Assembly: GCA_028707125.1 (NCBI GenBank)
Contig: JAQTUX010000001.1
Location: 725,764 to 789,763, forward strand
Direction of reading: 5' to 3'
Source of the DNA: Candidatus Omnitrophota bacterium
Lineage (GTDB): Bacteria; Omnitrophota; Gorgyraeia; Gygaellales; JAQTUX01
Length of the DNA: 64,000 bases
This document shows positions 16,741 through 48,000 of this stretch, one piece after another. Position 1 is the first letter of the stretch. Each line of letters starts with the position of its first letter. Both the position numbers and the translations under genes were made by a program. The notes beneath the pieces are model-generated. The model did not search any database. It saw only the letters and a list, made by a program, of their open reading frames with translations, and was not told the origin of the DNA.

Positions 16741-17997
16741 ATGTTTATATTATACGATTTATTTTTTCTGTTTTTTGCGTTGATTTACCTGCCGTATTCT
16801 CTGGCGAAGCGCAAGATCAACGCGGGTATTTTTCAGCGGATGGGGTTTTTGCGGCTGAAACAAGCCCCTGGCGCGGGGCTGATATGGCTCCACGCTGTAA
16901 GCGTGGGTGAGGTAATGGCTATCAAGGCCTTTGTCCGTGATACAGGCAGGGAATTCAGCCGGAACAAGATCGTCATCTCAACGGTAACCACAACCGGCAA
17001 TAAGCTGGCGGTAAAATTATTCGGTAATAACGCGCAGATATTCTATTTGCCTTTTGACCTGAGTTTTATCATCAAGCGCGTAATAAGGCGGATCAAGCCG
17101 TGTTTATTTATCGCGGTTGAAACAGAGCTTTGGCCGAACCTTCTTTCTTATCTTAAACAAAGCGGGGTGCCGACAGCGATCGTGAACGGCCGTATTTCCG
17201 ACAGGTCATTCAAAGGTTATTACCGCATGAAATTTTTATTCAAGCCGATATTAAATAAGGTAAGCTTATTCTGCGTGCGTTCTGACCAGGACGCGAGGCG
17301 GCTGGTCCAGCTGGGAGTTGATGATAAAAAAGTCAAAATAACGGGCAATATGAAGTTTGACCTGGAGATCAGCGCGCATTCTCTGGATATCGGGCTTAAA
17401 AGCGATGAGAAACTGTTCGTCTGCGGCAGCACGCATCCGCGCGAAGAGGAGATACTGCTGGGCGTTTACAGGCAGGCGCGCAGGCAGTTTCCGGATTTGA
17501 GGCTTTTAGTCGCGCCGAGGCATATAGAACGGTGCGGCGAGATAGAGGGGCTGGCCAGGAAAATGGGGTTTGACGCCTTGAGGATCTCGCGGATAAAGGC
17601 GGGCTGTCCCGCGGGCAGGAACTGCGTATTTCTTCTGGATATCATAGGCGAGTTGCCGTCATTATATAATATGGCCGATGTTGTGTTCATAGGGGGCAGT
17701 TTGATCGAGCACGGCGGCCACAATATCATTGAGCCGGCATTTTTCGGCAAGCCGATCGTGTTCGGCAGGCATATGTCCAATTTCAGGGATATTGCCGAGA
17801 TGTTCCTCAAGGATGAAGCAGCGATACAGGTAAAGGATGAAGCTGGATTAGGAAACGCTCTTAAGGATATTCTGGGCAGAGAAGATGTCAGGCAAAAGTT
17901 AGGCAACAACGCCCGTTCAGTGGTTGAGAAGAACAGAGGCGCCGTAGCGCGGACAATAGAGGAGATTGGAAGGATATTGGAGTATACCCCACACTAA
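16741..17997 (+). CDS. waaA: 3-deoxy-D-manno-octulosonic acid (Kdo) transferase
   Basis: LIWLHAVSVGEVMAIKAF is a GT30 N-terminal motif; 418 aa. It begins the lipid A/Kdo cluster. Confidence 0.85.
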   Translation: MFILYDLFFLFFALIYLPYSLAKRKINAGIFQRMGFLRLKQAPGAGLIWLHAVSVGEVMAIKAFVRDTGREFSRNKIVISTVTTTGNKLAVKLFGNNAQIFYLPFDLSFIIKRVIRRIKPCLFIAVETELWPNLLSYLKQSGVPTAIVNGRISDRSFKGYYRMKFLFKPILNKVSLFCVRSDQDARRLVQLGVDDKKVKITGNMKFDLEISAHSLDIGLKSDEKLFVCGSTHPREEEILLGVYRQARRQFPDLRLLVAPRHIERCGEIEGLARKMGFDALRISRIKAGCPAGRNCVFLLDIIGELPSLYNMADVVFIGGSLIEHGGHNIIEPAFFGKPIVFGRHMSNFRDIAEMFLKDEAAIQVKDEAGLGNALKDILGREDVRQKLGNNARSVVEKNRGAVARTIEEIGRILEYTPH

Positions 17998-18006
17998 CGT
18001 GTGGGG
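17987..18006. repeat. Palindromic hairpin repeat, copy a (CCCCACAC-TAAC-GTGTGGGG), spanning the waaA stop and preceding the lpxK ATG
   Basis: A perfect 8-bp stem with a 4-nt loop; 19 of 20 nt are identical to the copies at 20999 and 26317. Confidence 0.75.
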
Positions 18007-19104
18007 ATGGATATTATGATAAAGCGGTATTTTTACAATTTAGCAACCGATAGTCAGAAAGGCATTATAGCCGGCATACTAAAAGTATTCCTGTTTCTGC
18101 TTTCTCTGGTCTATGGAATTATTCTACGTATTTGCCGCAGGATTGCTTTGTCAGGGGCATTCCGTCCTGCCTGCAAGGTAATAAGCATCGGCAACATCAC
18201 CTGGGGCGGGACAGGAAAGACATCGTTAGTCAAACTGATCTTGCGGGTGTTAAAAGATAACGGCCGCAATCCGGCGGTCTTGATCAGAGGCTACGGACGC
18301 GAGGATAAGAACAGCCCTGTTATTGTGAAAGGCAGGCCTGAGGAATTCGGAATAAAGGGTATAGGGGATGAGGCATATATGCTGGCCGAGGATTTTCCCG
18401 ATGTGCCGATATTGATAGACGCCGACCGCCGCAGGTCTGCCGCTAAGGCGGCAGGCGAAATAAAAGCGGATACTGTTGTGCTTGATGACGGGTTTCAGCA
18501 TTGGAAATTAGAGCGCGATCTGGACATCGTCCTGCTCAACGCCAACGATCCTTTCGGTAACGGCCGCCTGATCCCGCGGGGCATATTAAGGGAGCCGCCT
18601 TCCTCGCTGAATCGCGCCGATATAATCTTGTTTACAAAGGCGGGAAGACAGGAAAGGGAAAAACTGGCAGCGTTGATAAGGGGCATAAACCCTTCTGCCC
18701 TGATGGCGTATTCTGACTATGTGCCTCGGTATTTTTATGATCTGGCCGATGAAAAAAGCACCTTGGAGGTGGATTCGCTGAAAGGCGAGGCGGCCTGCGT
18801 ATTTTCCGGCATAGGCGATGCCGGGTCTTTTGAGAAGACAGTCAGCGAATGCGGCGTATATATAAAGCTGCATTTAAAATTCCCCGACCATCATCTTTAC
18901 AGCGATAGCGATATTATAAAGATCAGGGCCGTCTGCCGCAGGAGCAGTATAAATACGGTGATCACCAGCCAGAAGGACGCGGTAAGGATAAGGGACCGCG
19001 CTTTGTTCGGCGGCCTGCGCGCGCTGGCGCTGAAAGCGGAGCTGGAGATAACACACAGCAAGGATGAATTTGTCCGGAGATTACTTTCTTTATATACTGC
19101 TTAA
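18007..19104 (+). CDS. lpxK: Tetraacyldisaccharide 4'-kinase
   Basis: ISIGNITWGGTGKTS is the LpxK P-loop. The ATG at 18007 is preferred over the in-hairpin GTG at 18001. Confidence 0.85.
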   Translation: MDIMIKRYFYNLATDSQKGIIAGILKVFLFLLSLVYGIILRICRRIALSGAFRPACKVISIGNITWGGTGKTSLVKLILRVLKDNGRNPAVLIRGYGREDKNSPVIVKGRPEEFGIKGIGDEAYMLAEDFPDVPILIDADRRRSAAKAAGEIKADTVVLDDGFQHWKLERDLDIVLLNANDPFGNGRLIPRGILREPPSSLNRADIILFTKAGRQEREKLAALIRGINPSALMAYSDYVPRYFYDLADEKSTLEVDSLKGEAACVFSGIGDAGSFEKTVSECGVYIKLHLKFPDHHLYSDSDIIKIRAVCRRSSINTVITSQKDAVRIRDRALFGGLRALALKAELEITHSKDEFVRRLLSLYTA

Positions 19105-20962
19105 GTCTTTAAGCGGGGTTTTTATGCTTATGCCTGTCGGCTGCGCCATATTTACAGGCGCGCTGTTGGGCAGGCTGGGGTATTATCTTGACCGCCGCCA
19201 TAGAAACGCTGCCTATAAGAATTTACGCATTGCCTTTGCCTCTTCTAAGGAGCCGGCAGAACTGCAGAGAATACTTAAGGGCTGTTTTGTGAACATCTGC
19301 CTGAGTTTCGTTGAGATGCTGCGGCTGCCCAAGGTGGATAAGCGGTATTTAGAGAGATTTGTGACCATAGAAGGCAGAGAGTATTTTGAAGAATGTTTCA
19401 GGCAGGGGAGGGGCCTGATAATTTTGGCCTCTCATTTCGGCAACTGGGAGCTGGCAATGTCCATGTGTTCGGCGTTTGGTTATCCTTTCAGCGTTATCGT
19501 ACAGGAGCAGAGAAAGAGCGGCCTGTTGAATGAGCTGCTTAACGATTATAGAAAGTCAAAGGGATATAAATTGATACCCGTGGATAAGAGCGCCAGAGAG
19601 GCAATGGCCGATCTAAAGGCGGGCAGGGTGCTGGGGATCGTGGCTGACCATGGAGGCGGCAGGGAGGGCAGCATGATAGAGTTTTTTTCACGCCCGGCAT
19701 CTACGCCTCAGGGCGCGGTAAAGTTAGCGCAACGGCTTAATGTTCCCATCATTATGGTTCATGTCATACGCCGGAAAGGCGCCTACCATAAAGTTGTTCT
19801 TTCTCCTCCTTTACGTCTGGCAACGGATGTGGATGAAAATCTGAGGATGATAAATAGATATATTGAGTCCTATGTGGGGAGTTTTCCGAATGAATACCTC
19901 TGGTTTTATAAGCGCTGGAAGTATTCTACGAAGCGGGACGCGCTTATTTTAAGCGATGGAAAACAAGGCCATCTGAATCAGTCAGAAGCGGTGCTGAAGG
20001 CCGCGGGAATGGGGAAGCGGCAGGTAGTCGGTAAGATCGCGAAGGTAGAATACAAGAACTTATTTATGAAATTTTTATTTTACTTTCTTGTGTTTTTATC
20101 GGGATTCGGCCGTATCTGCCGCGTTTTTATATTGAAGTCCTGCCTTAAAAAAGAATGTTACAAAGAATTGATCCATTATTACGCGGATATGGTTGTATCC
20201 TGCGGCTCATCGCTCGCGGGGGTTAACTTGCTTATCTCAAAGGAAAATGGCGCAAAGTCAGTCGCGGTTATGCGGCCGGGCGTATTCAGCCCCAGGAGGT
20301 TTGATCTGGTCATAGCGCCTAAGCATGACAGGCTCAGCGGGAAGCTTAAAAATATCGTAGTTACGGAAGGCGCGTTAAATACGATTGATGATTCCACAAT
20401 TCAGGAGGCAGGAAGGGCATTGATTAATAACGCCGGTTTGAATATTCAGCCGGACAGGAAATATTTAGGCATTCTTTTGGGCGGCGACGCAAAGGATTAT
20501 GGGTTGAATATAGAGGCGGCGCGCGATATCTTTAAGGCGCTAAAGTCGTTTTGCGAGAAGAATGGATGGGAGGCCCTTCTGACTACCTCGCGCAGGACAT
20601 CAAAGGATATTGAGAACCTTGTAAAGGATGAATTCGCGGCGTATCCGCGCTGCCGGCTTTTGATCATTGCTAATGAGAAGAACATTGAAGGGGCTGTGCC
20701 GGGCATCCTTGCCTTGAGCAGCGCGGTGATAGTATCGCCTGAAAGTATTTCAATGATCTCCGAGGCCGCCTCAAGCGGAAAGCCCGTATTTGTCTTTGAC
20801 GCGGAGAGAATAAGAGACAAGCGGCACAGGCGTTTTCTGGATAATCTCAAGGCAGGCGGGTATATCTCTGACTTCAATGTCGCCAATATCACAGAGCATA
20901 GCCCTAAGGTCTTGCGGGATTTGGAGCGTGTCCGAGGAAAGATTGTTGATTTGTTAGTATAG
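19064..20962 (+). CDS. Fusion of a lipid A biosynthesis lauroyl/myristoyl acyltransferase (LpxL/HtrB family, N-terminal ~295 aa) with a C-terminal ELM1/DUF1022-like domain
   Basis: The N-terminal half carries the LpxL-type HFGNWE and ...EYLWFYKRWK motifs. The C-terminal half carries LSDGKQGHLNQSEAV and FDLVIAPKHDRL, which recall the 'mitochondrial fission ELM1' family. One continuous 632-aa ORF. Confidence 0.7.
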   Translation: MNLSGDYFLYILLKSLSGVFMLMPVGCAIFTGALLGRLGYYLDRRHRNAAYKNLRIAFASSKEPAELQRILKGCFVNICLSFVEMLRLPKVDKRYLERFVTIEGREYFEECFRQGRGLIILASHFGNWELAMSMCSAFGYPFSVIVQEQRKSGLLNELLNDYRKSKGYKLIPVDKSAREAMADLKAGRVLGIVADHGGGREGSMIEFFSRPASTPQGAVKLAQRLNVPIIMVHVIRRKGAYHKVVLSPPLRLATDVDENLRMINRYIESYVGSFPNEYLWFYKRWKYSTKRDALILSDGKQGHLNQSEAVLKAAGMGKRQVVGKIAKVEYKNLFMKFLFYFLVFLSGFGRICRVFILKSCLKKECYKELIHYYADMVVSCGSSLAGVNLLISKENGAKSVAVMRPGVFSPRRFDLVIAPKHDRLSGKLKNIVVTEGALNTIDDSTIQEAGRALINNAGLNIQPDRKYLGILLGGDAKDYGLNIEAARDIFKALKSFCEKNGWEALLTTSRRTSKDIENLVKDEFAAYPRCRLLIIANEKNIEGAVPGILALSSAVIVSPESISMISEAASSGKPVFVFDAERIRDKRHRRFLDNLKAGGYISDFNVANITEHSPKVLRDLERVRGKIVDLLV

Positions 20963-28409: not shown

Positions 28410-29345
28410 ATGAATATAGATATCAATAAGATAAAAACATATTCGCTGACTAAGCGCAAGAGCAAGGTCAAGGTCTCTGAATTCGCCAAAGTCCTTAGAA
28501 AAGGCATAAGTTTTAAGGGCTTCTACGATTCGCTCCCTGACATTCTGAAGGCCTCCGAGCTCAGGAAGATAGTTGACGCTGTTATATCTGCCCGTCGGAA
28601 AAAGAAACCCGTGATCTTCATGTGCGGGGCGCACGTGATTAAATGCGGCCTGGGCCCTCTTTTGATCGATTTAATGAAGAGGGGCATAATCAGCTGTATT
28701 TCCTTGAACGGCGCGGGCATCATCCACGACTTTGAGCTGGCCTATTGCGGCCAGACCTCTGAAGACGTAGGCGAATCGCTGAAAAGCGGGAAATTCGGCA
28801 TGTCCCGCCAGACCGCGGAATTTATCAATGCCGCGGTTAAAGAGGGCAATGGGCTGGGTATGGGCATCGGAGAGGCGGTAGGGTTGAAGATCGAGAAAGA
28901 GCGGCTGCCCAACCGGCATCTGAGCATCCTGTCCTGCGGCTACAGGCTGGATATCCCCGTTACCGTCCATGTGGCGATAGGCACGGATATAATACATCAG
29001 CATCCTTCATTTGACGGCGCGGCCTGCGGCGAGGCAAGCGCTAAAGATTTTTACCGGCTGGTTGAGGAGACCGCTAAGCTTGATAACGGCGGCGTGGTCA
29101 TCAACTTCGGCTCTACGGTAGTGCTTCCGGAGGTTTTCCTGAAGGCGTTGAATCTGGCCCGTAACCTGAAGGGAAGCATCAGAAACTTTACTTCAGCAAA
29201 CTTTGATATGTATTATCATTACCGGCCGGCGATGAATGTGGTCTGCCGCCCCACCGAAGGTTCGGGAAAAGGGCATTATATCTTAGGCCACCATGAGATA
29301 ATGATACCGCTTTTGTACGCGGCGATCATTGAGAAGATACGATGA
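28410..29345 (+). CDS. Deoxyhypusine synthase-like family protein (hypothetical function)
   Basis: [45 protein letters not shown] parallels the eukaryotic DHS block [44 protein letters not shown]. Later blocks ([12 protein letters not shown] versus GMIILGGGVV) also fit. This is my recall, not a database search. Confidence 0.45.
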   Translation: [311 protein letters not shown]

Positions 29346-30373
29346 ACATCAACAAGAACCGGATAAAAAATATCATTAACGGGTTTTCCCGGGCCAGGGT
29401 CCTTGTAGTCGGAGACCTCATCCTTGACCAGTATATTTTCGGAGAGATCGACAGGATCTCTCCGGAAGCGCCGGTGCCTGTGGTGCATGCCAAGGAGAGG
29501 CAGTATTTGCCCGGCGGCGCCTGCAACGTAGCCGCCAATATCACAAGTTTAGGCGGCTCTGCTCAACTCGTCGGGGTCATAGGCAGGGACCTGCTTGCGA
29601 AGAAGTTGTTATCCGAGATTAAGGAAAGGCGCATAGGCACGGCAGGTATTATTCAGGACGCCGCGCGGCAGACCATACTTAAAACCAGGGTATTGGGCCA
29701 GAAACAGCAGGTAGTCAGGGTGGACTGGGAAGATGAGTCCGCGATATCGGATAAGACATCAGGCAGGATGTGCGAATATATCCTTAAAAACGCGTCCAGG
29801 TTTGACGCGGTCATTATTGAGGACTACGGAAAGGGCGTCATAACAGAGAAGGCCCTCAGGACGCTGAAGAGCGCGGTCGGCGGCGGCAAGATAATAACCG
29901 TTGACCCGAAGGAAGAACATTTTGATATTTACAGGGCGTTGTCTGTGACCTGCATAACCCCTAACCGCAGGGAGGCGGAATGCGCCATAAGGTATATAAA
30001 GATAAAGGATAAAGATAACGCCCTTGATATTTACAGCGATAAACTGAGGAGCGACAACGATATTAATCTGGCAGGCGAAGAGCTAAGAAAATACTTAAGG
30101 TGTAAATCCGTGCTTATCACTCTTGGCGAGTCAGGCATGCGTTTATTTGAGACGGGAAGGGTTACCCCCATACCTACTTTCGCGCAGGAGGTTTTTGACG
30201 TATCTGGAGCAGGCGACACCGTGATCGCCGCCCTGACCCTCGCGCTTGCCTCAGGCGCCGGGCTCGCGGAGGCCGCCTTTATCGCTAACCACGCCGCCGG
30301 CATAGTCGTGGGAAAGCTGGGCGTGGCTACGACGGATAGAAAGGAACTAAGGGAGCGTTTACAATGGACGTGA
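29342..30373 (+). CDS. hldA: D-glycero-beta-D-manno-heptose-7-phosphate kinase (RfaE domain I, PfkB family; kinase domain only)
   Basis: VLVVGDLILDQYIFGEIDRISPEAPVPVV and the C-terminal DVSGAGDTVIAALT (PfkB motif) are present. There is no adenylyltransferase domain. Confidence 0.8.
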   Translation: MNINKNRIKNIINGFSRARVLVVGDLILDQYIFGEIDRISPEAPVPVVHAKERQYLPGGACNVAANITSLGGSAQLVGVIGRDLLAKKLLSEIKERRIGTAGIIQDAARQTILKTRVLGQKQQVVRVDWEDESAISDKTSGRMCEYILKNASRFDAVIIEDYGKGVITEKALRTLKSAVGGGKIITVDPKEEHFDIYRALSVTCITPNRREAECAIRYIKIKDKDNALDIYSDKLRSDNDINLAGEELRKYLRCKSVLITLGESGMRLFETGRVTPIPTFAQEVFDVSGAGDTVIAALTLALASGAGLAEAAFIANHAAGIVVGKLGVATTDRKELRERLQWT

Positions 30374-31104
30374 TCGGAGTAATACCGGCGCGGTTTGGTT
30401 CAAGCAGGTTTCAGGGCAAGGTGCTTGCCGATATATTGGGCAAGCCGATGATACAGCATGTCTGGGAGCGTTCCAAACAGGCGAAGCTGCTTGATGACCT
30501 GGTCATTGCCTGCGATGACGAAAAGGTGGCGCGGGCCGCGGAGGGGTTTGGGGCGAAGGTGGTATTTACCGCCAAGGCGCATTCCTGCGGCACAGACAGG
30601 ATCGCGGAGGTGATCAATCCCATTGATGTGAACATCGTGATCAATATTCAGGGAGACGAACCGCTGGTCCATCCCGCGATGATAGATAATGTTGCCAGCG
30701 AACTCCTGGGCAATAAGGACGTATATATGGTAACGCTGATGAAGAAGATAGAGTCGGCGGATGAGGTCTCCAGCCCCAATGTCGTAAAGGTCATAACCGA
30801 CAAAGACGGCTTCGCGATCTATTTTTCCCGCTCCGCCATTCCTTATCATCGTTCGGAAAGCGCGGATGAGCCGGCCCCGGTTTATTATAAACATATCGGG
30901 CTCTATGGGTACACCAAGGATTTCATCTTTACTTACAAGAATATCCCGAAGTCAAAACTGGAACTGGCGGAGAAACTGGAACAATTGAGGGTTTTGGAGC
31001 ATGGGCTGCGCATTAAAGTTCTTGAAACCAGATTTGATACCGTGGGAGTGGACAGGTTTGAAGATATAGCCAAGGTAGAGCGATTGCTCAGGGAAGGGCT
31101 ATGA
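30364..31104 (+). CDS. kdsB: 3-deoxy-manno-octulosonate cytidylyltransferase (CMP-Kdo synthetase)
   Basis: [31 protein letters not shown] is present; 246 aa. Confidence 0.9.
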
Positions 31105-31922
31105 AGACGGTAAGGGTAGGAAAGATAAAGATAGGCGCCGACAGCCCTCTGGTTTTGATCGCCGGGCCCTGTGTCATTGAATCAGAGGCAATGGCATTGT
31201 CCTGCGCGGGAAAATTAAAGTCGATCTGCGACGGGCTTAAGGTACCGTTCATATTCAAGGCCAGCTACGATAAGGCAAACCGGCTTTCAGGCAAGTCCTT
31301 TCGCGGCCCCGGCATAAAAAAAGGGCTTAATGTGCTTAAGCGCGTTAAGAAAGAGATCGGCGTTCCCGTGCTCAGCGACGTGCATTGCAGGGAAGAGGTA
31401 AAGGAGGCTGCCGGGGTATTGGACGTGATCCAGATCCCCGCGTTCCTCTGCCGCCAGACCGACCTGCTTGTTGCCGCGGCAAAGACAGGGAAGCCGGTAA
31501 ACATAAAGAAGGGGCAGTTCATGGCTCCCTGGGATATAATCCCGGTGCTGCATAAAGTGGAATCACAGGGCAATAAGAACATATTGATCACCGAGCGCGG
31601 CGTGAGTTTCGGTTACAACAATTTAGTCGTTGACTTGAGGTCGCTTGCCGTTTTGAGCGAAAGCGGCTACCCGGTTATCTTTGACGCCACCCACAGCGTG
31701 CAGCTGCCCGGCGGAAGAGGCGATGCCTCTTCGGGGCAGAGGCAGTATGTTGCCGGTCTTTCGCGCGCCGCCGTTGCCTTCGGCTGTAACGGGCTGTTTT
31801 TGGAAGTCCACCCTGACCCTGATTCGGCGCTTTGCGACGCGGCCAATATGATCTCGTTGAATGAGGTCAAGCATTTACTTTCCCAGGTAATTAAAATAAA
31901 CGAGGCGTTGAAATGTGCGTAA
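31101..31922 (+). CDS. kdsA: 2-dehydro-3-deoxyphosphooctonate aldolase (Kdo-8-phosphate synthase)
   Basis: [15 protein letters not shown]...[12 protein letters not shown]...KKGQF are DAHP/KDO8P synthase motifs. Confidence 0.9.
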
Positions 31923-32872
31923 AGAGGGCAAGAGAGGTCTTGAGGATCGAGGCCGAGGCGATAAAAGGCCTTACGCCCCGGCTAAACGAAGATTTTAATA
32001 AGGCAGTGAGGACCATATACGAATGTAAGGGAATGGTCGTGCTTACCGGCATGGGCAAGGCAGGCATCATCGCCCAGAAGATCTCCGCGACGCTCGCCTC
32101 TACGGGCACGCCCAGTTTGTTCCTTCATTCCGCGGAAGCGATACACGGGGACCTGGGCAGGGTCAGGAAGGAAGATGTGGTAGTCGCCCTTTCCTATAGC
32201 GGAGAGACGCAAGAGGTAAAGCAGCTGCTCCCGATATTAAAAAAGATCGGTTCCACGCTTATATCAATTACAGGCGGCCCAAGGTCAACGCTGGCGCGCT
32301 ATTCCGATGTGGTCCTGGACGTCAGCGTGAAAAGAGAGGCATGCCCTTTAGGTCTGGCGCCCACGGCCTCCACTACCGCTATGCTGGCCATGGGGGACGC
32401 GCTTAGCGTCTGCGTTCAGGAAAAGAAGGGTTTCCGCGAAGAGGATTTCGCGCTGTATCACCCCGGCGGTTCGCTGGGTAAGCGGCTTCTGCTGAAGGTC
32501 GCGGATATAATGCGCAAAGGCAGGGATAATCCGGTAGTGAAAGAAAGCGAGAAGGTTTCCAGGGTGCTGTACAAGATCACGCAGGCGCGCGCGGGCGCGG
32601 CTTCAATTGTAGGCAAAGATGGAAAACTGAGCGGCATATTTACCGACGGAGATCTGAGAAGGCATCTTGAGTCGGATATCGATATTGCCAACTGTCATAT
32701 CTCTGAAGTCATGACCAGGAGGCCGGCAACGATCACAAAAGAGCGGCTGGCTGTAGAGGCGCTGAAGATATTAAAGGATAAAAAGATCGATGAGCTGCCT
32801 GTCGTAGATGAGAAAATGCGGCCTGTGGGCATGCTTGATGTGCAGGATCTGCTTAAGGCGGGATTAGTTTAG
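31913..32872 (+). CDS. kdsD: Arabinose-5-phosphate isomerase (SIS domain + tandem CBS domains)
   Basis: [41 protein letters not shown] is a SIS domain. The C-terminal CBS pair is present; 319 aa. Confidence 0.85.
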
Positions 32873-32875
32873 GAT

Positions 32876-33397
32876 ATGGATAATCTTACAGAAAAACTAA
32901 AGAAGGTCAAAGTCCTGCTGCTGGACGTGGACGGGGTGCTGACGGACGGCAGGATCATCTATGATTCCAAAGGCAGGGACATGAAATTTTTTGATGTCCA
33001 CGACGGCATGGGCGTGCACCTGCTTAAAAAGGCGGGCATCAAGGTCGTGCTGGTGACCGCGCGCGGCTCAAAGGCGATAAGGCCGCGCGCAAAAGATATG
33101 GGGGTTGATTTTATTTTTGAGGACCTTTCGCCCAAGACATCCTGCCTGGGCAAGGTGCTTGGCCGTTTTAAAGTGGCTGCCGACGAACTTATGTTCGTAG
33201 GAGATGACCTCGTTGACCTCTGCCTGATGAAGGCGGTAGGGCTTCCTGTCGCCGTATGCAATGCCTGCCCGGAAGTCATAAATAAGGCGGCGTATATAAC
33301 AAAAAAGTCAGGCGGCAGGGGAGCTGTCAGAGAGATATCCGAGCTTATCCTTAAGGCGCAGGGGAAGTGGGATGAGGTAATAGCGAAATATGTCTAA
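32876..33397 (+). CDS. kdsC: Kdo-8-phosphate phosphatase (HAD-IIIA)
   Basis: VKVLLLDVDGVLTDGRIIY...GDDLVDL are present; 173 aa. Confidence 0.88.
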   Translation: MDNLTEKLKKVKVLLLDVDGVLTDGRIIYDSKGRDMKFFDVHDGMGVHLLKKAGIKVVLVTARGSKAIRPRAKDMGVDFIFEDLSPKTSCLGKVLGRFKVAADELMFVGDDLVDLCLMKAVGLPVAVCNACPEVINKAAYITKKSGGRGAVREISELILKAQGKWDEVIAKYV

Positions 33398-34265
33398 ATA
33401 TAATATTCTCTTCTTATTATTTTGTATTTTTATAGCGGCGAGCTCCTTTCTCGCTTCCGCTGAAGAGGAGCAGAAAGATGCGGAGCAGCAGATGGAGGAG
33501 TTCAGCATAGCCGGCTTCGGCGAACAAGGGAAGAAGACCTGGCAGCTTAACGGCAAGAACGCCGATATATATTCCAGCAACATAAAACTGACCGATATAG
33601 TCGCGGATATGTACGGTGATCAAGACGACATCACGCTTACCGCCGACCGCGGCTCTTTTGACAAGGCAAACGGCAAGATGCACCTTGAAAGCAACGTGGT
33701 GGCCACGACAAAATCCGGCGCCAAGATGACCACGGATTCGCTGGATTGGGACAGGGAGAAACAACTGGTCACCACTCCGGACAGGGTGAATGTTTACAGG
33801 GAGAATATGCACACGCAGGGCACAGGGGCAGAGGGAAAGACAGACCTCCAGACCGTGACCCTGCAGAAGGATGTTAAGGTTGAGATAGAGCCCAAGGAGG
33901 GAGAGAAGGCCCAGGGTACGGTCACCATTACCTGCGACGGAGCGCTTGAAGTCGATTACGGCAAAGAGGTCGCGGTGTTTAACGAGAACGTTAAGGCGGA
34001 TGACGGGGAAAATCAGATCTACAGCGACAGGATGGACGTCCATTTCAGCATGTCGGGGGAGGTTGACCCCAAGACCGGCCAGAAAAAGGGCAGTATAAAA
34101 AAGATAGTGGCAGAGGGTAATGTGAAGATAGTAAAGGGCGAGAACGAGAGTTACGCCCAGAAAGCGGAGTATATTGCCGAGGAGAAAAGGGTCGTGCTTA
34201 CCGGCAGGCCTAAACTTATGATTCTGTCTGAAGGCGGAGGGCTGGATGCATCTTTTGGAGATTAA
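33390..34265 (+). CDS. LptC/LptA-family (OstA-like beta-jellyroll) LPS transport protein, probably an LptC-LptA-like fusion or elongated LptA
   Basis: A signal/anchor helix is followed by repetitive OstA-like beta-rich sequence. It sits between kdsC and lptB, as in canonical kdsC-lptC-lptA-lptB operons; 291 aa. Confidence 0.65.
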   Translation: MSKYNILFLLFCIFIAASSFLASAEEEQKDAEQQMEEFSIAGFGEQGKKTWQLNGKNADIYSSNIKLTDIVADMYGDQDDITLTADRGSFDKANGKMHLESNVVATTKSGAKMTTDSLDWDREKQLVTTPDRVNVYRENMHTQGTGAEGKTDLQTVTLQKDVKVEIEPKEGEKAQGTVTITCDGALEVDYGKEVAVFNENVKADDGENQIYSDRMDVHFSMSGEVDPKTGQKKGSIKKIVAEGNVKIVKGENESYAQKAEYIAEEKRVVLTGRPKLMILSEGGGLDASFGD

Positions 34266-34989: not shown

Positions 34990-35880
34990 GTGAAAAAACA
35001 GATCAAGAAGATAGACGCCACAAAGATGGAAGTGCATATTGAGGCGGGCGCCGATGTGGTAGCCGGTAAATTCAACGAGGTTTACGAAAAGATCTCAAAA
35101 GAGGCGAAGGTCAAGGGTTTCAGGCCGGGCAAGGTGCCGCGCGATATCCTGGAAAAACATTATTCATCTCATGCCCATCAACAGGTAGTCAACGAGCTTG
35201 TTCCGGATCTATTGAAGAAGGCGGCGGATGAAGACAAGATTAATATAGTAAGCGTCCTCAATGTCAGCGACGTCAATTTAAGCGGCGCGAATATTTCCTT
35301 TAAGGCGGATGTTGAGGTTGAGCCGGAGGTCAAGCTCGGCGAATATAAGGGCATTAAGGTCAAATGGGAAGAAGTAAAGATCGGCAAGGATGACGTCAAA
35401 AGGTATATAGAGGCGCTGAAGGAAAAGGGCGGGCTGGAAGTCCCCGGCGAAGGGCTCGCGCGCGCTCTCGGCTACCCCAGTAATGAGCAGATGGAGGAGT
35501 CGGTGCGCATGCAGTTGTATCTTCAAAAAGAAAATCAGATAAGGTCGGGCATAGAGCAGAAGATAATAGACGAGCTTCTAAAGAGTTCTTCCTTAAGCGT
35601 CCCGCAGAGTTTATTGGCCAGGCGCCTTGATGAGCTTGCCTCCGACGCCAAGATGCAGCTTGCGATGAGGGGTTTTACCAAGGAGCAGATCGAGGGCAAG
35701 GACGAAGATTTGAAGAAGGAACTCAAGGCAAATGCCGAAACGCAGGTGAAGATATACCTTATATTCAAAAGTATAGCGCAGAAAGAGAATATAACCGTAG
35801 ACAATCAGGTGACTCAGAAGGTGATGGAGTTCTTGCTTAAGGCCGCCGACTGGGATGTCCCGTCGAGGATAATAACATAA
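34990..35880 (+). CDS. tig: Trigger factor lacking the PPIase (FKBP) domain (GTG start)
   Basis: The ribosome-binding signature GFRPGKVPRDILEKHY and the tig-clpP gene order are present. At 296 aa it is too short to contain the central PPIase domain. Confidence 0.7.
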   Translation: MKKQIKKIDATKMEVHIEAGADVVAGKFNEVYEKISKEAKVKGFRPGKVPRDILEKHYSSHAHQQVVNELVPDLLKKAADEDKINIVSVLNVSDVNLSGANISFKADVEVEPEVKLGEYKGIKVKWEEVKIGKDDVKRYIEALKEKGGLEVPGEGLARALGYPSNEQMEESVRMQLYLQKENQIRSGIEQKIIDELLKSSSLSVPQSLLARRLDELASDAKMQLAMRGFTKEQIEGKDEDLKKELKANAETQVKIYLIFKSIAQKENITVDNQVTQKVMEFLLKAADWDVPSRIIT

Positions 35881-40720: not shown

Positions 40721-42472
40721 ATGGGCGTAAGATTCAAGATTTTGACGATATCTTTAGGCCTGATATTGTTTTTGTCCTGCGTTAAGGCGCGCGCGGCGCA
40801 GGTACAGATAGTATTTACCGGCGAGGCGCATTCGGCGTTATACCCTTGCGACTGCCCCAAAGAGCCGGACGGCGGAGTTGCCAGGCGCGCCGGCGCCATA
40901 AAAGAACTAAGAAAGAAGGCGGGCGGCGTTATTCTTCTTGAGACAGGGGGGTTCTTTGCCGGAGGTATGCAGGACACATATTCTCAGAACGTTGACTTCG
41001 ACAAGAACAGGACACAGGTTTATCTCAGGTCGCTTGAGCTTATGGGCTATGATGCCGTAGGCATAGGAGACGACGAATTCAATTTCGGCCCCGATTTCTT
41101 AAAAGAGGTTGTTCAGAAAAGCGGCCTGAGATTTCTTTCGGCGAATGTGGGCATAGAAAAGATAGCGCCTTACACGATCAAGGAAATAGAGGGTATGCGT
41201 TTCGGCATAATAGGGGTAACTACAATGTCCGCGAGGCAGAAGGCGGGTATTGTGGGCATAAAGGATGCCTTTAGTTCAGTCAAGCAATACGCGGCAGAGC
41301 TCAAGGCTCAGGGCGCGGACTTCATAATACTTCTTAGCCATATGGGAGAAGAGGAAGACGTGAGGCTGCTGGATGAGGTTTCCGGCATAGACATAGTCGT
41401 CGTTTCTCATTCGAGGGTTTCCAATGAGATCTACTCAAAGAGAGGCGAGGTTATTCTGGTGAGGCCGGCCTGGCAGGGGCGCCGTCTTGGAATATTAAAG
41501 CTGGAGATAAAGGATAAGAAAATCATTGATTCCAAGGCAGAGGACATGCGCCTTTCCGACCAGGTCCCCGACGATCCGGACGCCCTTTCCATATTACCCC
41601 AATGTTTTCAGGATTCGGACTGTAAAAAGGGCCAGCTTAAGGGCGCCTGCGGCAATCCCGGGACTAAAGATGCAAGCTGCAGTTTCAGCCGGCCCCTGGA
41701 GGTAAAACTGACGGTTATTAACTCTAAGCAGTGCCTGGTCTGCAATACGGAGCAGACGATCGGATTGCTCAAGTCATTACTGCCCGGCCTTGATGTGAAA
41801 TACCTTGATCATAACAGCAGGGCTGCCAGGAAGATCATTTCAGAAGTTAGCGCCGATACCTTGCCCGTGTATCTTTTGGATAAGGGCGTGAAAAAGGCGG
41901 CCAGATACGGCGAGTTGAAGCCCAATCTCACGGAGAAAAAGGATTTTATCATGGTCAATCCTCAGTTTGCGGGCGTAGGTTATTTTATGAACAGAGAGAG
42001 GATCAAACCGAGATTAGACGTATTTTTGACCCTCTATGATAAGAATACCCCGAAAGTACTGGACGCGGTAAGGAAATTTAACGCGCGGGTGCATTTTCTG
42101 GCAACACAAACTCCTGCCGGTGATTTCAGCGCTCCGGGCGGCCTTGCCGAGATAGAAGAGGATTTGAGGTCTGCCTGTGTCATGAATTTGTACCCGGATA
42201 AGGCCTACGACTACCTGCGCTGCCGTTCAGCCAATATCGCCAGCTCCTGGTGGGATGACTGCGCCCGGGATATGGATCTGGAAAAGATAAGATCGTGCGC
42301 CAAGTCGGAAGACGGCAGGAAGATGTTGAAGGAAAACGTCGCTCTGAATAAGGAGCTGCAATTGATGCACGGGCCCACGTACCTCATAAATAACGTAGAG
42401 ATCGCCTCTTCCGTTGAGGCGCCTCAGCCGGCTGAGTTGAAGCGGCTTATTGAAGAAAAAAATGGGAGATAG
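40721..42472 (+). CDS. Secreted two-domain protein: degenerate 5'-nucleotidase/metallophosphatase-like N-domain + Cys-rich linker + DsbA-like thioredoxin-fold domain (CLVC active site)
   Basis: The N-terminal layout (I.FTGEAHS...GGVILLETGG...GYDAVGIGDDEF...LSAN) parallels UshA-type 5'-nucleotidases but with metal ligands replaced. The C-terminal half has SKQCLVCN (CxxC) and a cis-Pro-like HGPTYLINN. Confidence 0.5.
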   Translation: MGVRFKILTISLGLILFLSCVKARAAQVQIVFTGEAHSALYPCDCPKEPDGGVARRAGAIKELRKKAGGVILLETGGFFAGGMQDTYSQNVDFDKNRTQVYLRSLELMGYDAVGIGDDEFNFGPDFLKEVVQKSGLRFLSANVGIEKIAPYTIKEIEGMRFGIIGVTTMSARQKAGIVGIKDAFSSVKQYAAELKAQGADFIILLSHMGEEEDVRLLDEVSGIDIVVVSHSRVSNEIYSKRGEVILVRPAWQGRRLGILKLEIKDKKIIDSKAEDMRLSDQVPDDPDALSILPQCFQDSDCKKGQLKGACGNPGTKDASCSFSRPLEVKLTVINSKQCLVCNTEQTIGLLKSLLPGLDVKYLDHNSRAARKIISEVSADTLPVYLLDKGVKKAARYGELKPNLTEKKDFIMVNPQFAGVGYFMNRERIKPRLDVFLTLYDKNTPKVLDAVRKFNARVHFLATQTPAGDFSAPGGLAEIEEDLRSACVMNLYPDKAYDYLRCRSANIASSWWDDCARDMDLEKIRSCAKSEDGRKMLKENVALNKELQLMHGPTYLINNVEIASSVEAPQPAELKRLIEEKNGR

Positions 42473-45015: not shown

Positions 45016-48000
45016 ATGAGTAAGTCGCTCTGCATGAAATCCCGCCACCTAATAATTATAGGTATATCACTCTTTTTGAATGCGAGTTATGTTTGTTATG
45101 CTAGAAATGACGAAAGCCAAGATTTGAAATTATTTCAATCAGCCCTGCATGACCAAAAAGACCTTAAATGGCAGGAAGGCCTCGCTAAATTCCGGCAGAT
45201 TGCAGCATTCTATCCACAGACTCAAACCGCTCAAAAAGCCCATATTGAAATCGGGAAATTCTATAAATACAATCGTAACTGGCAAAGGGCCATTGACGAA
45301 TACCGTCAGGCCATAGCCATTGATCCTTATTCCCGCCCGGCCCACGATGCCAGGACTGCCGAAGCCGCGACATATTATTTTCGTCAAGATTTCCCACGGG
45401 CCCTGGAGCTCTTTGAAGCAGTGCTTTTAGAAACGAAGGATTGGGACCAGATAAAATACTGTTCATACTGGATAAAGGAAATAAGGCGTAGAATGTCTTT
45501 TGCGCCTGAGGAGTCGTTTTCTTGCGGCCCTGAGAGCCTGAAGATTGCGTTCAGGATTTTAGGGATTGATTTTTCCGATAAGGAATTGAGCAGGGCATTT
45601 ACTTATAAAGAGGGCAAATCTGTTTCAATCTCTGATCTATCCAGTGTTGCCTCAGGAAAAGGGCTTAAGCCCAAAATAGTAAAAATAAACAGGAATGAAG
45701 TCCAAAATTTGACCGCGCCTTTTATCGCGCTTGTTGATCCGGAGCATTATGTGGTAGTTACCGGAATTGAAGATTCTCAGGTAAAATTCATTGATCCGGC
45801 TAATCAGAGCGGCTATCAATTAGAAGGCCTTGATAAATTCATCGGCGATTTTAAGGGCTATGCCCTGATTTTCTTGGAAGACTCCAGGCTTGCCAAGGCT
45901 AATTACGTAGTCCCTACTAATGAAGAAGCGCAAGAACTGAAGGGCGGAATATGTTCCTGTTGTCCTCCCGCGGCATTAGGCGGCCGGCAGAGCAATCCAA
46001 ATGTAGAGTTTGACGGCAGCCCACCCTGTTCTCCGGGTATGCCTTCCTGGATGGTTAATATGATAAGCCTCAATCTTGTTGTCCAAGATATAGATTTTAG
46101 ATACATCTCCAGAGGGGTGCCTGCGGAGCTCATCCGCACATATAACGGCGATGATCCGCGCGAAGGGATATTCGGCCGCTCCTGGACATTTAACTATAAT
46201 GTTTCTTTGGTAGAAAACTCTGATAGTAGTATAGACATACGAAGAGGAGACGGCAGGGTGGACCATTTCACCTGGACCGGTGTCCGCTATCAGGGGCCAA
46301 ATGATGTTTATGATACGCTGGCTAAGAATGCCGATGGGACATATACGTTAAAGATTAAGAGAGATAAAACCATACAGGATTTTGATGCCTGGGGCCGGCT
46401 CATTGATATTAAGGACCGTAACGATAACGCTATAACATTTACCTATAATAGCGAAGCCAATCTTATTCGTATTACCGACCCTAATGGCAAGAACACGGTT
46501 CTATCTTACGGTGCGAATAGGAAAGTTTCTCGTATAACCCTGCCTGATGGACGATATGCAAGATTTATTTATGATACCAATAACAATTTGATTCAAACTG
46601 TGGATATGAAGGGCGCTACTTCAAGCTATACCTATGATAGCGCCAGTTACATTACCGCTATAACCACACCGCATCGCGGTATGACCGCTATTGAGTATGG
46701 AGTAGGCAGTTATGGTGAGGACCCAAGCGGTAGATCGCACTATTATGTTAAATCCATCACCGATGATGCAGGGAATAAGAGGAGATATGCAATCGATGAA
46801 TGGCATCATCAGACAGGCGTCCTGGATAGCCGTAATAATACAATGCTATATGAAGATAATCTTTCGGGATATACAAGCGCCATAACGACGCCCTCCGGGA
46901 ATAAAATAACTTTTATATATGACTATTACGGTAACCGGGAGAAAATTATAGATGCTTCCGGCAATGTAACCGTTTTGGCCTATGATTCAAGGGGCAATAC
47001 TATTTCTATAACCGATACCCTGAATAATAAACTTACCCTTGACTACGATACCAATGATAATCTTATCCAAGCCGCCGATCCCAAAGGAGGTATCTATAAT
47101 TTTAATTATGACGGCAAGGGCAACCTTATTTCTGTCAGGGATCCGGAGAATCAGATAACAGGTTTTGCCTATAATAATTTTGGGCAGATAAATCGTATTG
47201 TTGATGCAAACGGGGGAACAACGGACTTTGAATATGATACGTCAGGTAATCTTATTAACGTTACCAACCCTTCAGGCAGGAAGACCGTTTATAAATATGA
47301 TACATTAGGCAGAGTCAGGTCCTTATCTGACCCTGAAGGCAATACCTTTTCCTATACTTATGATGGAGTTGACCATTTGACCAGGATAGACAATCCCGAT
47401 GAGGACCCGATAAAGTATTTCTACAACTGCTGTAACATTACCAGGGTTAGGGATGGACAAGGGACAATGCGTTTTACCTATGACGCCTTAGGCAGGATGA
47501 GGTCATTCAGGAACTATGATTCTAAACTCATCGCCTACGAATATGATACAGAGGGTAACCTGTCCGGCTTGATTTATCCGGATGGAAAAAAGGTCTCCTA
47601 TGAATATGATAAAGACAGCCGTTTAATTAAGGTCACGGACTGGCTGGGTAACGCAACACGATATAATTACGATGCGGTAGGCAACCTCATCTCCGTTGTT
47701 TCTCCGGGTTTAATCACAACCTATAAATATGATTCTGTAAATCGGCTGATTAGGTTAGCGAATTATAACTCCAACACATTGGATATTGTTTCTATTTTTA
47801 ATTTTACCCTTGACCCGCTTGGCAACCGCACCCAGGTTAAGCGCCTTCTTCCATTAAATATCCCTGATTTTAACATAGCCGATTCTAGTTACTCCTATAA
47901 CAGCGATAACCAGCTCACCTCTGCCACAGGCAGGAGCTTTGAATATGATGACAATGGTAATCTCACCAGGCAGATTGCCGGCGCTGCAACCACGAATTTC

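Follow-up and report, generated by a model that had tools for sequence, protein, structure and literature searches.

Bacterial members of the Mito_fiss_Elm1 family (PF06258) have been described from the outer-core (OC) loci of Acinetobacter baumannii, where the product of the first gene, GtrOC1, was assigned to the Mito_fiss_Elm1 glycosyltransferases, within the GT-B clan, and where GtrOC14, GtrOC19a-c, and GtrOC22 belong to the same family (Kenyon et al., 2014; PMC4172580). Deletion of the ELM1-like gene A1S_2903 in A. baumannii results in a core with two residues of 3-deoxy-D-manno-oct-2-ulosonic acid (Kdo) (mBio, 2024; PMC10936431), and the purified product, named KdoT, transfers a third Kdo from cytidine monophosphate (CMP)-Kdo onto Kdo2-lipid IVA (Journal of Biological Chemistry, December 2025; PMC12856342). 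KdoT prefers a tetra-acylated over a hexa-acylated acceptor, and lipid IVA is not an acceptor; the activity depends on the positive charge carried by R180, part of an SRRT motif that is invariant, and D8, H13, H109, and D110 are each dispensable singly (PMC12856342). In the same organism, the GT4 enzyme GnaT acts after KdoT, and a kdoT mutant is complemented by Rickettsia homologs as well as by those of further Acinetobacter species (PMC12856342). Here, we describe a relative of KdoT that occupies the C-terminal half of a two-domain protein, encoded by an open reading frame (ORF) at positions 19064-20962 of a 64,000-nucleotide stretch of a Candidatus Omnitrophota genome (contig JAQTUX010000001.1, positions 725,764 to 789,763; hereafter, the window). 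An initial annotation of the window had treated the family as one with no established bacterial function, a statement overtaken by the genetic (2024; PMC10936431) and biochemical (2025; PMC12856342) work on KdoT; the function of ELM1 is thus not reopened here, having been answered experimentally in 2024-2025.

The ORF encodes 632 amino acids from an ATG start, and the single reading frame, its two halves, and the motifs quoted for them in the initial annotation were all recovered from the window. Two complete domains are assigned to it by the Pfam profile search, PF03279 followed by PF06258, and the NCBI entry for an identical protein, encoded on a 1.26-Mb contig of a Candidatus Omnitrophica metagenome-assembled genome (MAG), reads “ELM1/GtrOC1 family putative glycosyltransferase.” The AlphaFold2 (AF2) model of the full-length protein has a predicted local distance difference test score (pLDDT) of 91.4 and a predicted template modeling score (pTM) of 0.89. 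The spacing between the W.YK.WK and SDGK motifs on either side of the inter-domain linker is 10 residues in all of the 22 homologs that match the regular expression for these motifs, and no second copy of either domain occurs elsewhere in the 64-kb window. The coordinates of these and the other features are collected in Table 1.

The conservation of this arrangement was surveyed by scanning one genome per GTDB species; the best 80 loci were drawn from at least 581 genomes with a relative, and architecture and gene order were counted in these loci from stop-to-stop ORFs scored with the window's own proteins. The 80 loci carry the labels Omnitrophota/Omnitrophica, “uncultured Planctomycetia/Planctomycetales,” or “uncultured bacterium.” An acyltransferase (LpxL) domain and an ELM1 domain share one ORF in 71 of the 80, three of these being cut by a contig end, and the loci with this architecture stem from different MAGs, single-amplified genomes, and one closed chromosome. 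Four further loci (L045, L051, L069, and L076) encode an LpxK-ELM1 protein of ∼720 amino acids, with PF02606 and PF06258 and no LpxL domain, and the ORFs with ELM1 only comprise three cut by a contig end, one apparent split (L065), and one divergent standalone paralog (L080). Among NCBI proteins, 313 were retrieved at E < 1e-5, and the best 120 homologs all carry both Pfam domains, at 36-83% identity. The gene order across the best 80 loci is (topA) xerC, waaA, lpxK, LpxL-ELM1, GT4-GT9, GT4, GT9: among the longer related loci, most have xerC-waaA-lpxK in this order ahead of the ELM1 gene, lpxK is the immediate upstream neighbor in 67 of the 80, and a GT4-GT9 fusion is the next gene downstream in 71 of the 80, plus 5 cut copies. 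The survey that the initial annotation had suggested, for other LpxL-ELM1 fusions or conserved neighborhoods, therefore finds both.

These counts also bear on whether the fusion might be an assembly or frameshift artifact that joins two separate genes, as the two overlapping ORFs at locus L065 could be taken to indicate. The ORFs at L065, however, result from a frameshift within the LpxL half, and the ELM1 ORF retains the C-terminal tail of LpxL, so that L065 was rejected as an independent two-gene arrangement. With 71 independent fused loci, more than 120 full-length two-domain proteins from Omnitrophota MAGs, a constant linker length, and conserved synteny, an artifact is refuted by the conservation data and is left with a practically negligible probability, and the architecture of the LpxL-ELM1 ORF is confirmed as real, well beyond chance. 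Two observations on the surveyed loci are recorded here in their own right. At L051 and L069, ∼1.6 kb without assignment separates waaA from the LpxK-ELM1 ORF. The loci L010, L014, L032, L036, L037, and L040, and likewise L041, L047, L055, L064, and L077, come from MAGs titled “uncultured Planctomycetia/Planctomycetales” that carry an Omnitrophota-type LpxL-ELM1 operon at ∼40% identity, which suggests that these titles are coarse or wrong taxonomic labels.

The initial annotation had pointed to hallmarks of the ELM1 family in the C-terminal part of the protein, and the profile search places this part in that family and not in an unrelated one: PF06258 matches residues 302-627 nearly end to end (E = 5.4e-54; profile positions 2-300 of 304; score 183.8 bits, cutoff 27). 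Across 48 full-length homologs with 35-82% identity, the invariant residues of this half are D298, G302, H303, Q306, S379, G381, P405, F413, H421, D422, G473, G474, T508, S509, R510, R511, N540, S561, S563, M564, S566, and E567, and T512 of the SRRT motif is nearly invariant. The AF2 model of the C-domain alone has a pLDDT of 91.9, and a Foldseek search against the PDB returned 155 matches at E ≤ 1e-3, of which the top 50 listed are all GT-B-fold enzymes; the best matches are UDP-N-acetylglucosamine 2-epimerases (E = 2e-8), followed by MurG, WaaF/WaaC, MshA, and TreT. The ELM1 half is thus predicted by its model to have a GT-B fold, with two Rossmann-like halves. The spacing between the first two motifs is 75-102 residues in Omnitrophota vs. 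53 in KdoT, and the 22-49 extra residues constitute a hydrophobic insert in the N-terminal Rossmann half (residues 333-357 in the window protein), possibly an element of membrane or acceptor contact.

For a direct comparison with KdoT, its sequence was obtained by tblastn from a plasmid collection in which A. baumannii chromosomes have been deposited as “plasmids.” The gene for the retrieved protein comes first after ilvE, and aspS closes the locus; the protein is annotated as a “nucleoside-diphosphate sugar epimerase,” a misannotation according to PMC4172580. It has 296 residues, with D8, H13, H109, D110, and S178-R179-R180-T181 numbered identically to those of PMC12856342, and it is 96% identical to an A. 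baumannii “ELM1/GtrOC1 family” protein at NCBI; locus position (ilvE to aspS) and residue numbering together confirm it as KdoT. The records concerned, 0.56-4.1 Mb in size and containing the chromosomal ilvE-OC locus-aspS region, are chromosomes or chromosome fragments labeled as plasmids (L081, i.e., CP040041.1, positions 74015-92863; NZ_CP077849.1; NZ_CP064203.1; NZ_CP104448.1). The epimerase annotation of KdoT is still carried by CP040041.1. A BLASTP alignment of the window protein's C-domain with KdoT spans 331 columns and shows 26% identity (E = 9e-21). When the 48 Omnitrophota domains are compared with 8 Acinetobacter KdoT sequences, 27 positions carry an identical residue in 90% or more of the sequences of each clade, including D298 (D8 in KdoT), H303 (H13), H421 (H109), D422 (D110), and the TTSRRT segment at residues 507-512 (176-181). 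In a homolog search with KdoT as the query, the matches listed were Acinetobacter orthologs only.

These shared residues argue against two other roles for the C-domain, those of a non-catalytic scaffold or adaptor and of a phosphotransferase. According to work cited in PMC10936431, plant ELM1 serves as an adaptor of dynamin-related proteins, and the phosphotransferases TagF/TarL, which have a GT-B-like fold, are found among the weaker Foldseek matches of the full-length model. Against this, the 27 residues conserved between Omnitrophota and KdoT cluster in motifs placed in the predicted catalytic cleft (PMC12856342), they include R511, the counterpart of the functionally required R180 of KdoT, and the best fold matches are nucleotide-sugar enzymes. 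We therefore consider a scaffold or a phosphotransferase very improbable. The initial annotation had argued from the fusion that bacterial ELM1-like proteins act on lipid A/Kdo, for example as a nucleotide-sugar-dependent transferase or a phosphotransferase; the first is supported by the KdoT work, the GT-B fold, and the conserved motifs, and the second has found no support. The argument from fusion is valid, and it corroborates existing work instead of constituting a new discovery.

The N-terminal half had been described as a complete late acyltransferase of the LpxL/HtrB type, and its PF03279 (Lip_A_acyltrans) match is indeed close to full length (E = 1.4e-43; residues 19-286, profile positions 25-294 of 295; score 149.7 bits, cutoff 22.3). 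In the set of 48 homologs, H124, G126, W128, E129, and D195 are invariant, and the YLWFYKRWK motif is located at residues 278-286. Residues 7-38 have Kyte-Doolittle values of 1.6-1.9 in 19-residue windows and overlap two helices of the model (residues 5-22 and 25-42), and they probably form a membrane anchor. The best PDB fold matches of this half are the A. baumannii LpxM structures 5KNK and 5KN7 (E = 5e-16), with PatA also among the matches; for 5KNK the E-value is 5.4e-16 and the TM-score on the target is 0.70. The NCBIfam equivalog cutoffs for LpxL, LpxM, and LpxP are not reached (best model NF006270, 134.1 bits vs. 248), and because the score lies below every one of these cutoffs, the acyltransferase half is filed at the superfamily/family level. 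With the catalytic motifs invariant across homologs, both halves of the protein look active.

The LpxL-type enzymes of E. coli accept Kdo2-lipid IVA. Since this is also the acceptor of KdoT (PMC12856342), the two kinds of enzyme joined in the Omnitrophota protein use the same substrate, around which a mechanism can be proposed. LpxK and WaaA would synthesize Kdo2-lipid IVA on the cytoplasmic side of the inner membrane, in which the fusion protein would be held by the N-terminal helix of its LpxL half. Using its H124/E129 dyad, the N-terminal half would then acylate Kdo-lipid IVA with a secondary chain, and the C-terminal half would transfer one sugar from a nucleotide-activated donor onto the Kdo part of this lipid, most probably with CMP-Kdo as the donor and another Kdo as the sugar. 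The core would next be extended by the GT4-GT9 protein, paralleling the succession of KdoT and the GT4 enzyme GnaT in Acinetobacter. Considered as a whole, a membrane-anchored bifunctional enzyme that acylates and glycosylates Kdo2-lipid IVA, most probably with Kdo, is a probable reading of this gene. The more general assignment, a bifunctional acyltransferase and inner-core glycosyltransferase, is very likely, while for Kdo as the transferred sugar the chances appear close to evenly balanced, if slightly on the doubtful side.

An exhaustive phmmer search with the C-domain over 1.84 billion representative sequences yielded 2,883 clusters at E ≤ 1e-3, of which 244 reach E ≤ 1e-30. Among the best 150 clusters, most are ∼640-660 residues long and match from about residue 300 onward, some are standalone proteins of ∼350 residues, and a few have 700-736 residues and are probably LpxK fusions. 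Two standalone relatives, P0437 (L082) and P0410 (L083, from a MAG labeled Deltaproteobacteria), are followed directly by a GT4-GT9 fusion gene; neither waaA nor lpxK is found among the genes on the fetched stretches of these two loci. Two others, P0453 and P0420, are encoded in O-antigen-like clusters, together with an MsbA-like ATP-binding cassette (ABC) transporter, methyltransferases, Wzy_C, and Wzm/Wzt. Standalone paralogs outside the core operon in Omnitrophota include those at L086:8001-9074 and L085:8001-9083, both in O-antigen-like clusters, and at L080:7908-9077. The gene at L086 overlaps the end of the MsbA-like ABC transporter gene, near the methyltransferases, Wzy_C, and Wzm/Wzt, and in the copy at L080, SLRT and HRHS replace SRRT and KHD.

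Several observations weigh against the proposed function. The Omnitrophota paralogs in O-antigen-like clusters share 35-41% identity with the window domain, and one of them, P0420, keeps TSRRT; SRRT was consequently rejected as a marker of Kdo specificity and is probably a family-wide donor-binding motif. GtrOC14, 19, and 22 of the A. baumannii OC loci are presumed to form other linkages (PMC4172580), the sequence identity to KdoT is only 26%, the neighboring Kdo genes are explained equally well by WaaA, and the profile matches assign the acyltransferase half to a superfamily or family only, with chain and position specificity not given by NCBIfam. The Omnitrophota paralogs, the retained SRRT, and the 26% identity would fit an active inner-core glycosyltransferase whose sugar is not Kdo but, for example, a hexose, hexuronic acid, or heptose, with Kdo or lipid A as the acceptor, as would the several PF06258 paralogs in the Acinetobacter OC loci (GtrOC14, 19a-c, and 22). 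However, the sole biochemically characterized member of the family uses CMP-Kdo, the distant Rickettsia homolog complements the same step (PMC12856342), and the domain is placed among waaA, lpxK, and lpxL, outside the variable outer-core part. We therefore regard a non-Kdo sugar as unlikely, and favor Kdo.

The position of the domain in the operon can also be read in another way. The WaaA enzymes of Aquifex and Haemophilus, among others, are monofunctional, and if the WaaA of Omnitrophota were so too, the C-domain would add the second Kdo; its near-universal presence in the core operon fits such an essential step better than an accessory one. The KdoT of A. baumannii, however, is inactive on lipid IVA and was tested only on Kdo2-lipid IVA (PMC12856342), and the WaaA sequence gives no indication of its functionality, so that we rate the addition of a second Kdo as improbable. 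Considering the second Kdo and the non-Kdo sugar jointly, there is a minor but appreciable probability that the Omnitrophota domain performs another, still undescribed decoration of Kdo-lipid A within a physically coupled, transmembrane-anchored assembly line; if so, the LpxL and LpxK fusions and the invariable GT4-GT9 partner would be signs of a multi-enzyme complex in which late acylation and core glycosylation are coupled.

Under the favored reading, a KdoT-like Kdo transferase joined to a late acyltransferase, the fusion would provide an otherwise anchorless glycosyltransferase with a transmembrane tether and with 1:1 expression alongside an enzyme of the Raetz pathway. LpxK, the partner of the ELM1 domain in some lineages, acts before WaaA and has an N-terminal hydrophobic helix; in the LpxK of the window, the N-terminal hydrophobic stretch is GIIAGILKVFLFLLSLVYGIIL. 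Because the ELM1 domain is also fused to LpxK, membrane tethering with stoichiometric co-expression is more likely the selected benefit than strict channeling.

In the window, the fusion gene directly follows waaA and lpxK, as the initial annotation had noted, with the PF04413 and PF02606 genes immediately upstream and the 3′ end of lpxK overlapping the start of the fusion ORF by 41 nucleotides. Of all partners, the GT4-GT9 gene accompanies the ELM1 domain most constantly, since it also occurs directly after the standalone ELM1 genes of L082 and L083. It is the first of a series of co-directional genes 3′ of the fusion, followed by a GDSL hydrolase, a GT4, and three further GT9 genes, after which the cluster continues with a gene without a Pfam match, a PfkB kinase, kdsB, kdsA, kdsD, kdsC, an LptC-LptA fusion, and lptB. 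With the kds genes, LptC-LptA, and lptB in the same cluster, CMP-Kdo synthesis and lipopolysaccharide (LPS) export are encoded beside the fusion.

Table 1. Positions of the ELM1 fusion, its domains and motifs, and neighboring genes in the window, and of the LpxK-ELM1 ORFs at related loci.
Feature	Position	Strand	Evidence
Fused ORF, LpxL-type acyltransferase + ELM1/GtrOC1/KdoT-type GT-B glycosyltransferase	19064..20962	+	Pfam, homologs, conservation, AF2 model
Hydrophobic N-terminal segment, predicted membrane anchor, residues 7-38	19082..19177	+	Hydropathy, model helices
Lipid A late acyltransferase domain, residues 19-286	19118..19921	+	PF03279 E 1.4e-43; Foldseek LpxM/PatA
HFGNWE, predicted HX4E catalytic dyad H124/E129, residues 124-129	19433..19450	+	Invariance in homologs
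Short inter-domain linker, residues 287-296	19922..19951	+	Constant motif spacing; high pTM of two-domain model
SDGKQGH loop, residues 297-303 (D298, H303 = KdoT D8, H13)	19952..19972	+	Invariant; KdoT alignment
ELM1/GtrOC1/KdoT-family GT-B domain, residues 302-627 (fold from ∼residue 294)	19967..20944	+	PF06258; model; KdoT homology
Hydrophobic two-helix insert, N-terminal Rossmann half, residues 333-357	20060..20134	+	Hydropathy 1.65-1.76; gap in KdoT alignment
PKHDRL, residues 419-424 (H421, D422 = KdoT H109, D110)	20318..20335	+	Invariant; KdoT alignment
SRRT, residues 509-512 (R511 = KdoT R180)	20588..20599	+	Invariance; aligned to KdoT S178-T181; mutagenesis in PMC12856342
waaA, Kdo transferase GT30	16741..17997	+	PF04413 E 2e-60; NCBIfam NF004388 E 1.8e-108
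lpxK, tetraacyldisaccharide 4'-kinase	18001..19104	+	PF02606 E 1e-77; TIGR00682 187.6 bits vs. cutoff 91.95
GT4 + GT9 fusion, 704 amino acids	21056..23170	+	Pfam GT4 residues 12-335, GT9 (heptosyltransferase-like) residues 433-676
kdsB, kdsA, kdsD, kdsC (CMP-Kdo supply)	30364..33397	+	PF02348 E 2e-61; PF00793 E 3e-74; SIS+CBS; HAD phosphatase
LpxK-ELM1 ORF	L045:1813-3981		PF02606 + PF06258
LpxK-ELM1 ORF	L051:6906-9077		PF02606 + PF06258
LpxK-ELM1 ORF	L069:6912-9065		PF02606 + PF06258
LpxK-ELM1 ORF	L076:2831-4972		PF02606 + PF06258

Other features of the window are noted apart from the fusion. LptC (residues 7-166) and LptA/LptD_N (residues 186-276) are joined in a single 291-amino acid ORF (33390-34265) directly before lptB. 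A 311-amino acid ORF (28410-29345), flanked in the LPS cluster by the GT9 genes and the PfkB kinase, has no Pfam match above the cutoff and a weak 20-bit deoxyhypusine-synthase-like match, and a 583-amino acid ORF (40721-42472) likewise has no Pfam match above the cutoff. A trigger factor of 296 amino acids (34990-35880) matches Trigger_N and Trigger_C, with no match to the peptidyl-prolyl isomerase domain. The GC content drops to 0.42-0.43 between positions 45016 and 51822, compared with ∼0.51, and this stretch encodes a 1278-amino acid candidate polymorphic toxin, with TPR, Peptidase_C39, DUF6531, and 7 RHS repeats, followed by an 888-amino acid protein with only a weak Kre9/KNH Ig-like match. 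Throughout positions 1-64000, all ORFs with an assigned function lie on the + strand and the GC skew is positive in every 2-kb bin, which fits a long co-directional stretch of the leading strand.

Both enzyme families are known, and what is new is the LpxL-KdoT-like (alternatively LpxK-KdoT-like) architecture beside a GT4-GT9 gene, found phylum-wide. Literature searches (DUF1022, Mito_fiss_Elm1/PF06258, and Omnitrophota LPS) found no paper describing an LpxL-ELM1 fusion, and the KdoT paper makes no mention of fusions (PMC12856342). The newly defined KdoT/ELM1 family, described from Acinetobacter and Rickettsia, is hereby extended to an entire uncultivated phylum, and the fusion to LpxL or LpxK, with fixed synteny to waaA, lpxK, and the GT4-GT9 gene, provides independent genomic evidence for a bacterial role in the assembly of lipid A and the inner core. 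A sequence-profile search found no solved relative of the ELM1 domain in the PDB, which makes the natural fusion, compact and well predicted, a target of interest for the first experimental structure of the family. It is also suited to testing whether late acylation and KdoIII-type glycosylation are coordinated.

Among other Kdo transferases, WaaA (GT30) is the canonical alpha-Kdo transferase and also has a GT-B fold, and WaaZ (GT73) is the KdoIII transferase of E. coli K-12. The chemistry proposed for the window domain, from CMP-Kdo to the inner core of Kdo-lipid A, is the same. WaaA nevertheless belongs to another family than the ELM1 domain: PF04413 has no match on ORF 19064-20962, WaaA is absent from the top 50 Foldseek matches of the C-domain, and a relation to GT30 at the sequence level was rejected by hhalign against the WaaA of the window (probability 0.3%, E = 0.19), as was a relation to GT9, for which hhalign gave no significant similarity to a GT9 protein. 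Plant ELM1 (ELONGATED MITOCHONDRIA 1), the member that gives PF06258 its name, is of the same Pfam family; its description is that of a mitochondrial fission adaptor, and it is not known to act as a glycosyltransferase, whereas the bacterial context here is entirely one of LPS assembly.

Characterized LpxL and LpxM share with the N-terminal half the full PF03279 profile, the HX4E dyad, and the N-terminal hydrophobic anchor, with LpxM (PDB 5KN7/5KNK) as the best structural match; they differ from the window protein in that it scores below the NCBIfam equivalog cutoffs and carries a C-terminal glycosyltransferase of 340 amino acids, which is absent from them. KdoT and the window domain have in common PF06258 (203.5 bits for KdoT and 183.8 for the window domain), the GT-B fold, similarity across the whole domain, and the conservation of D8, K10, G12, H13, Q16, H109, D110, GG, TTSRRT, and SxSMxxEA, and they would act in the same pathway, KdoT being followed by a GT4 enzyme and the window gene by one for a GT4-GT9 fusion. 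In contrast, KdoT is a standalone peripheral protein whose gene lies between ilvE and aspS, in the outer-core locus, whereas the window domain is fused behind LpxL within the waaA-lpxK operon and has an additional hydrophobic insert of ∼22 or more residues.

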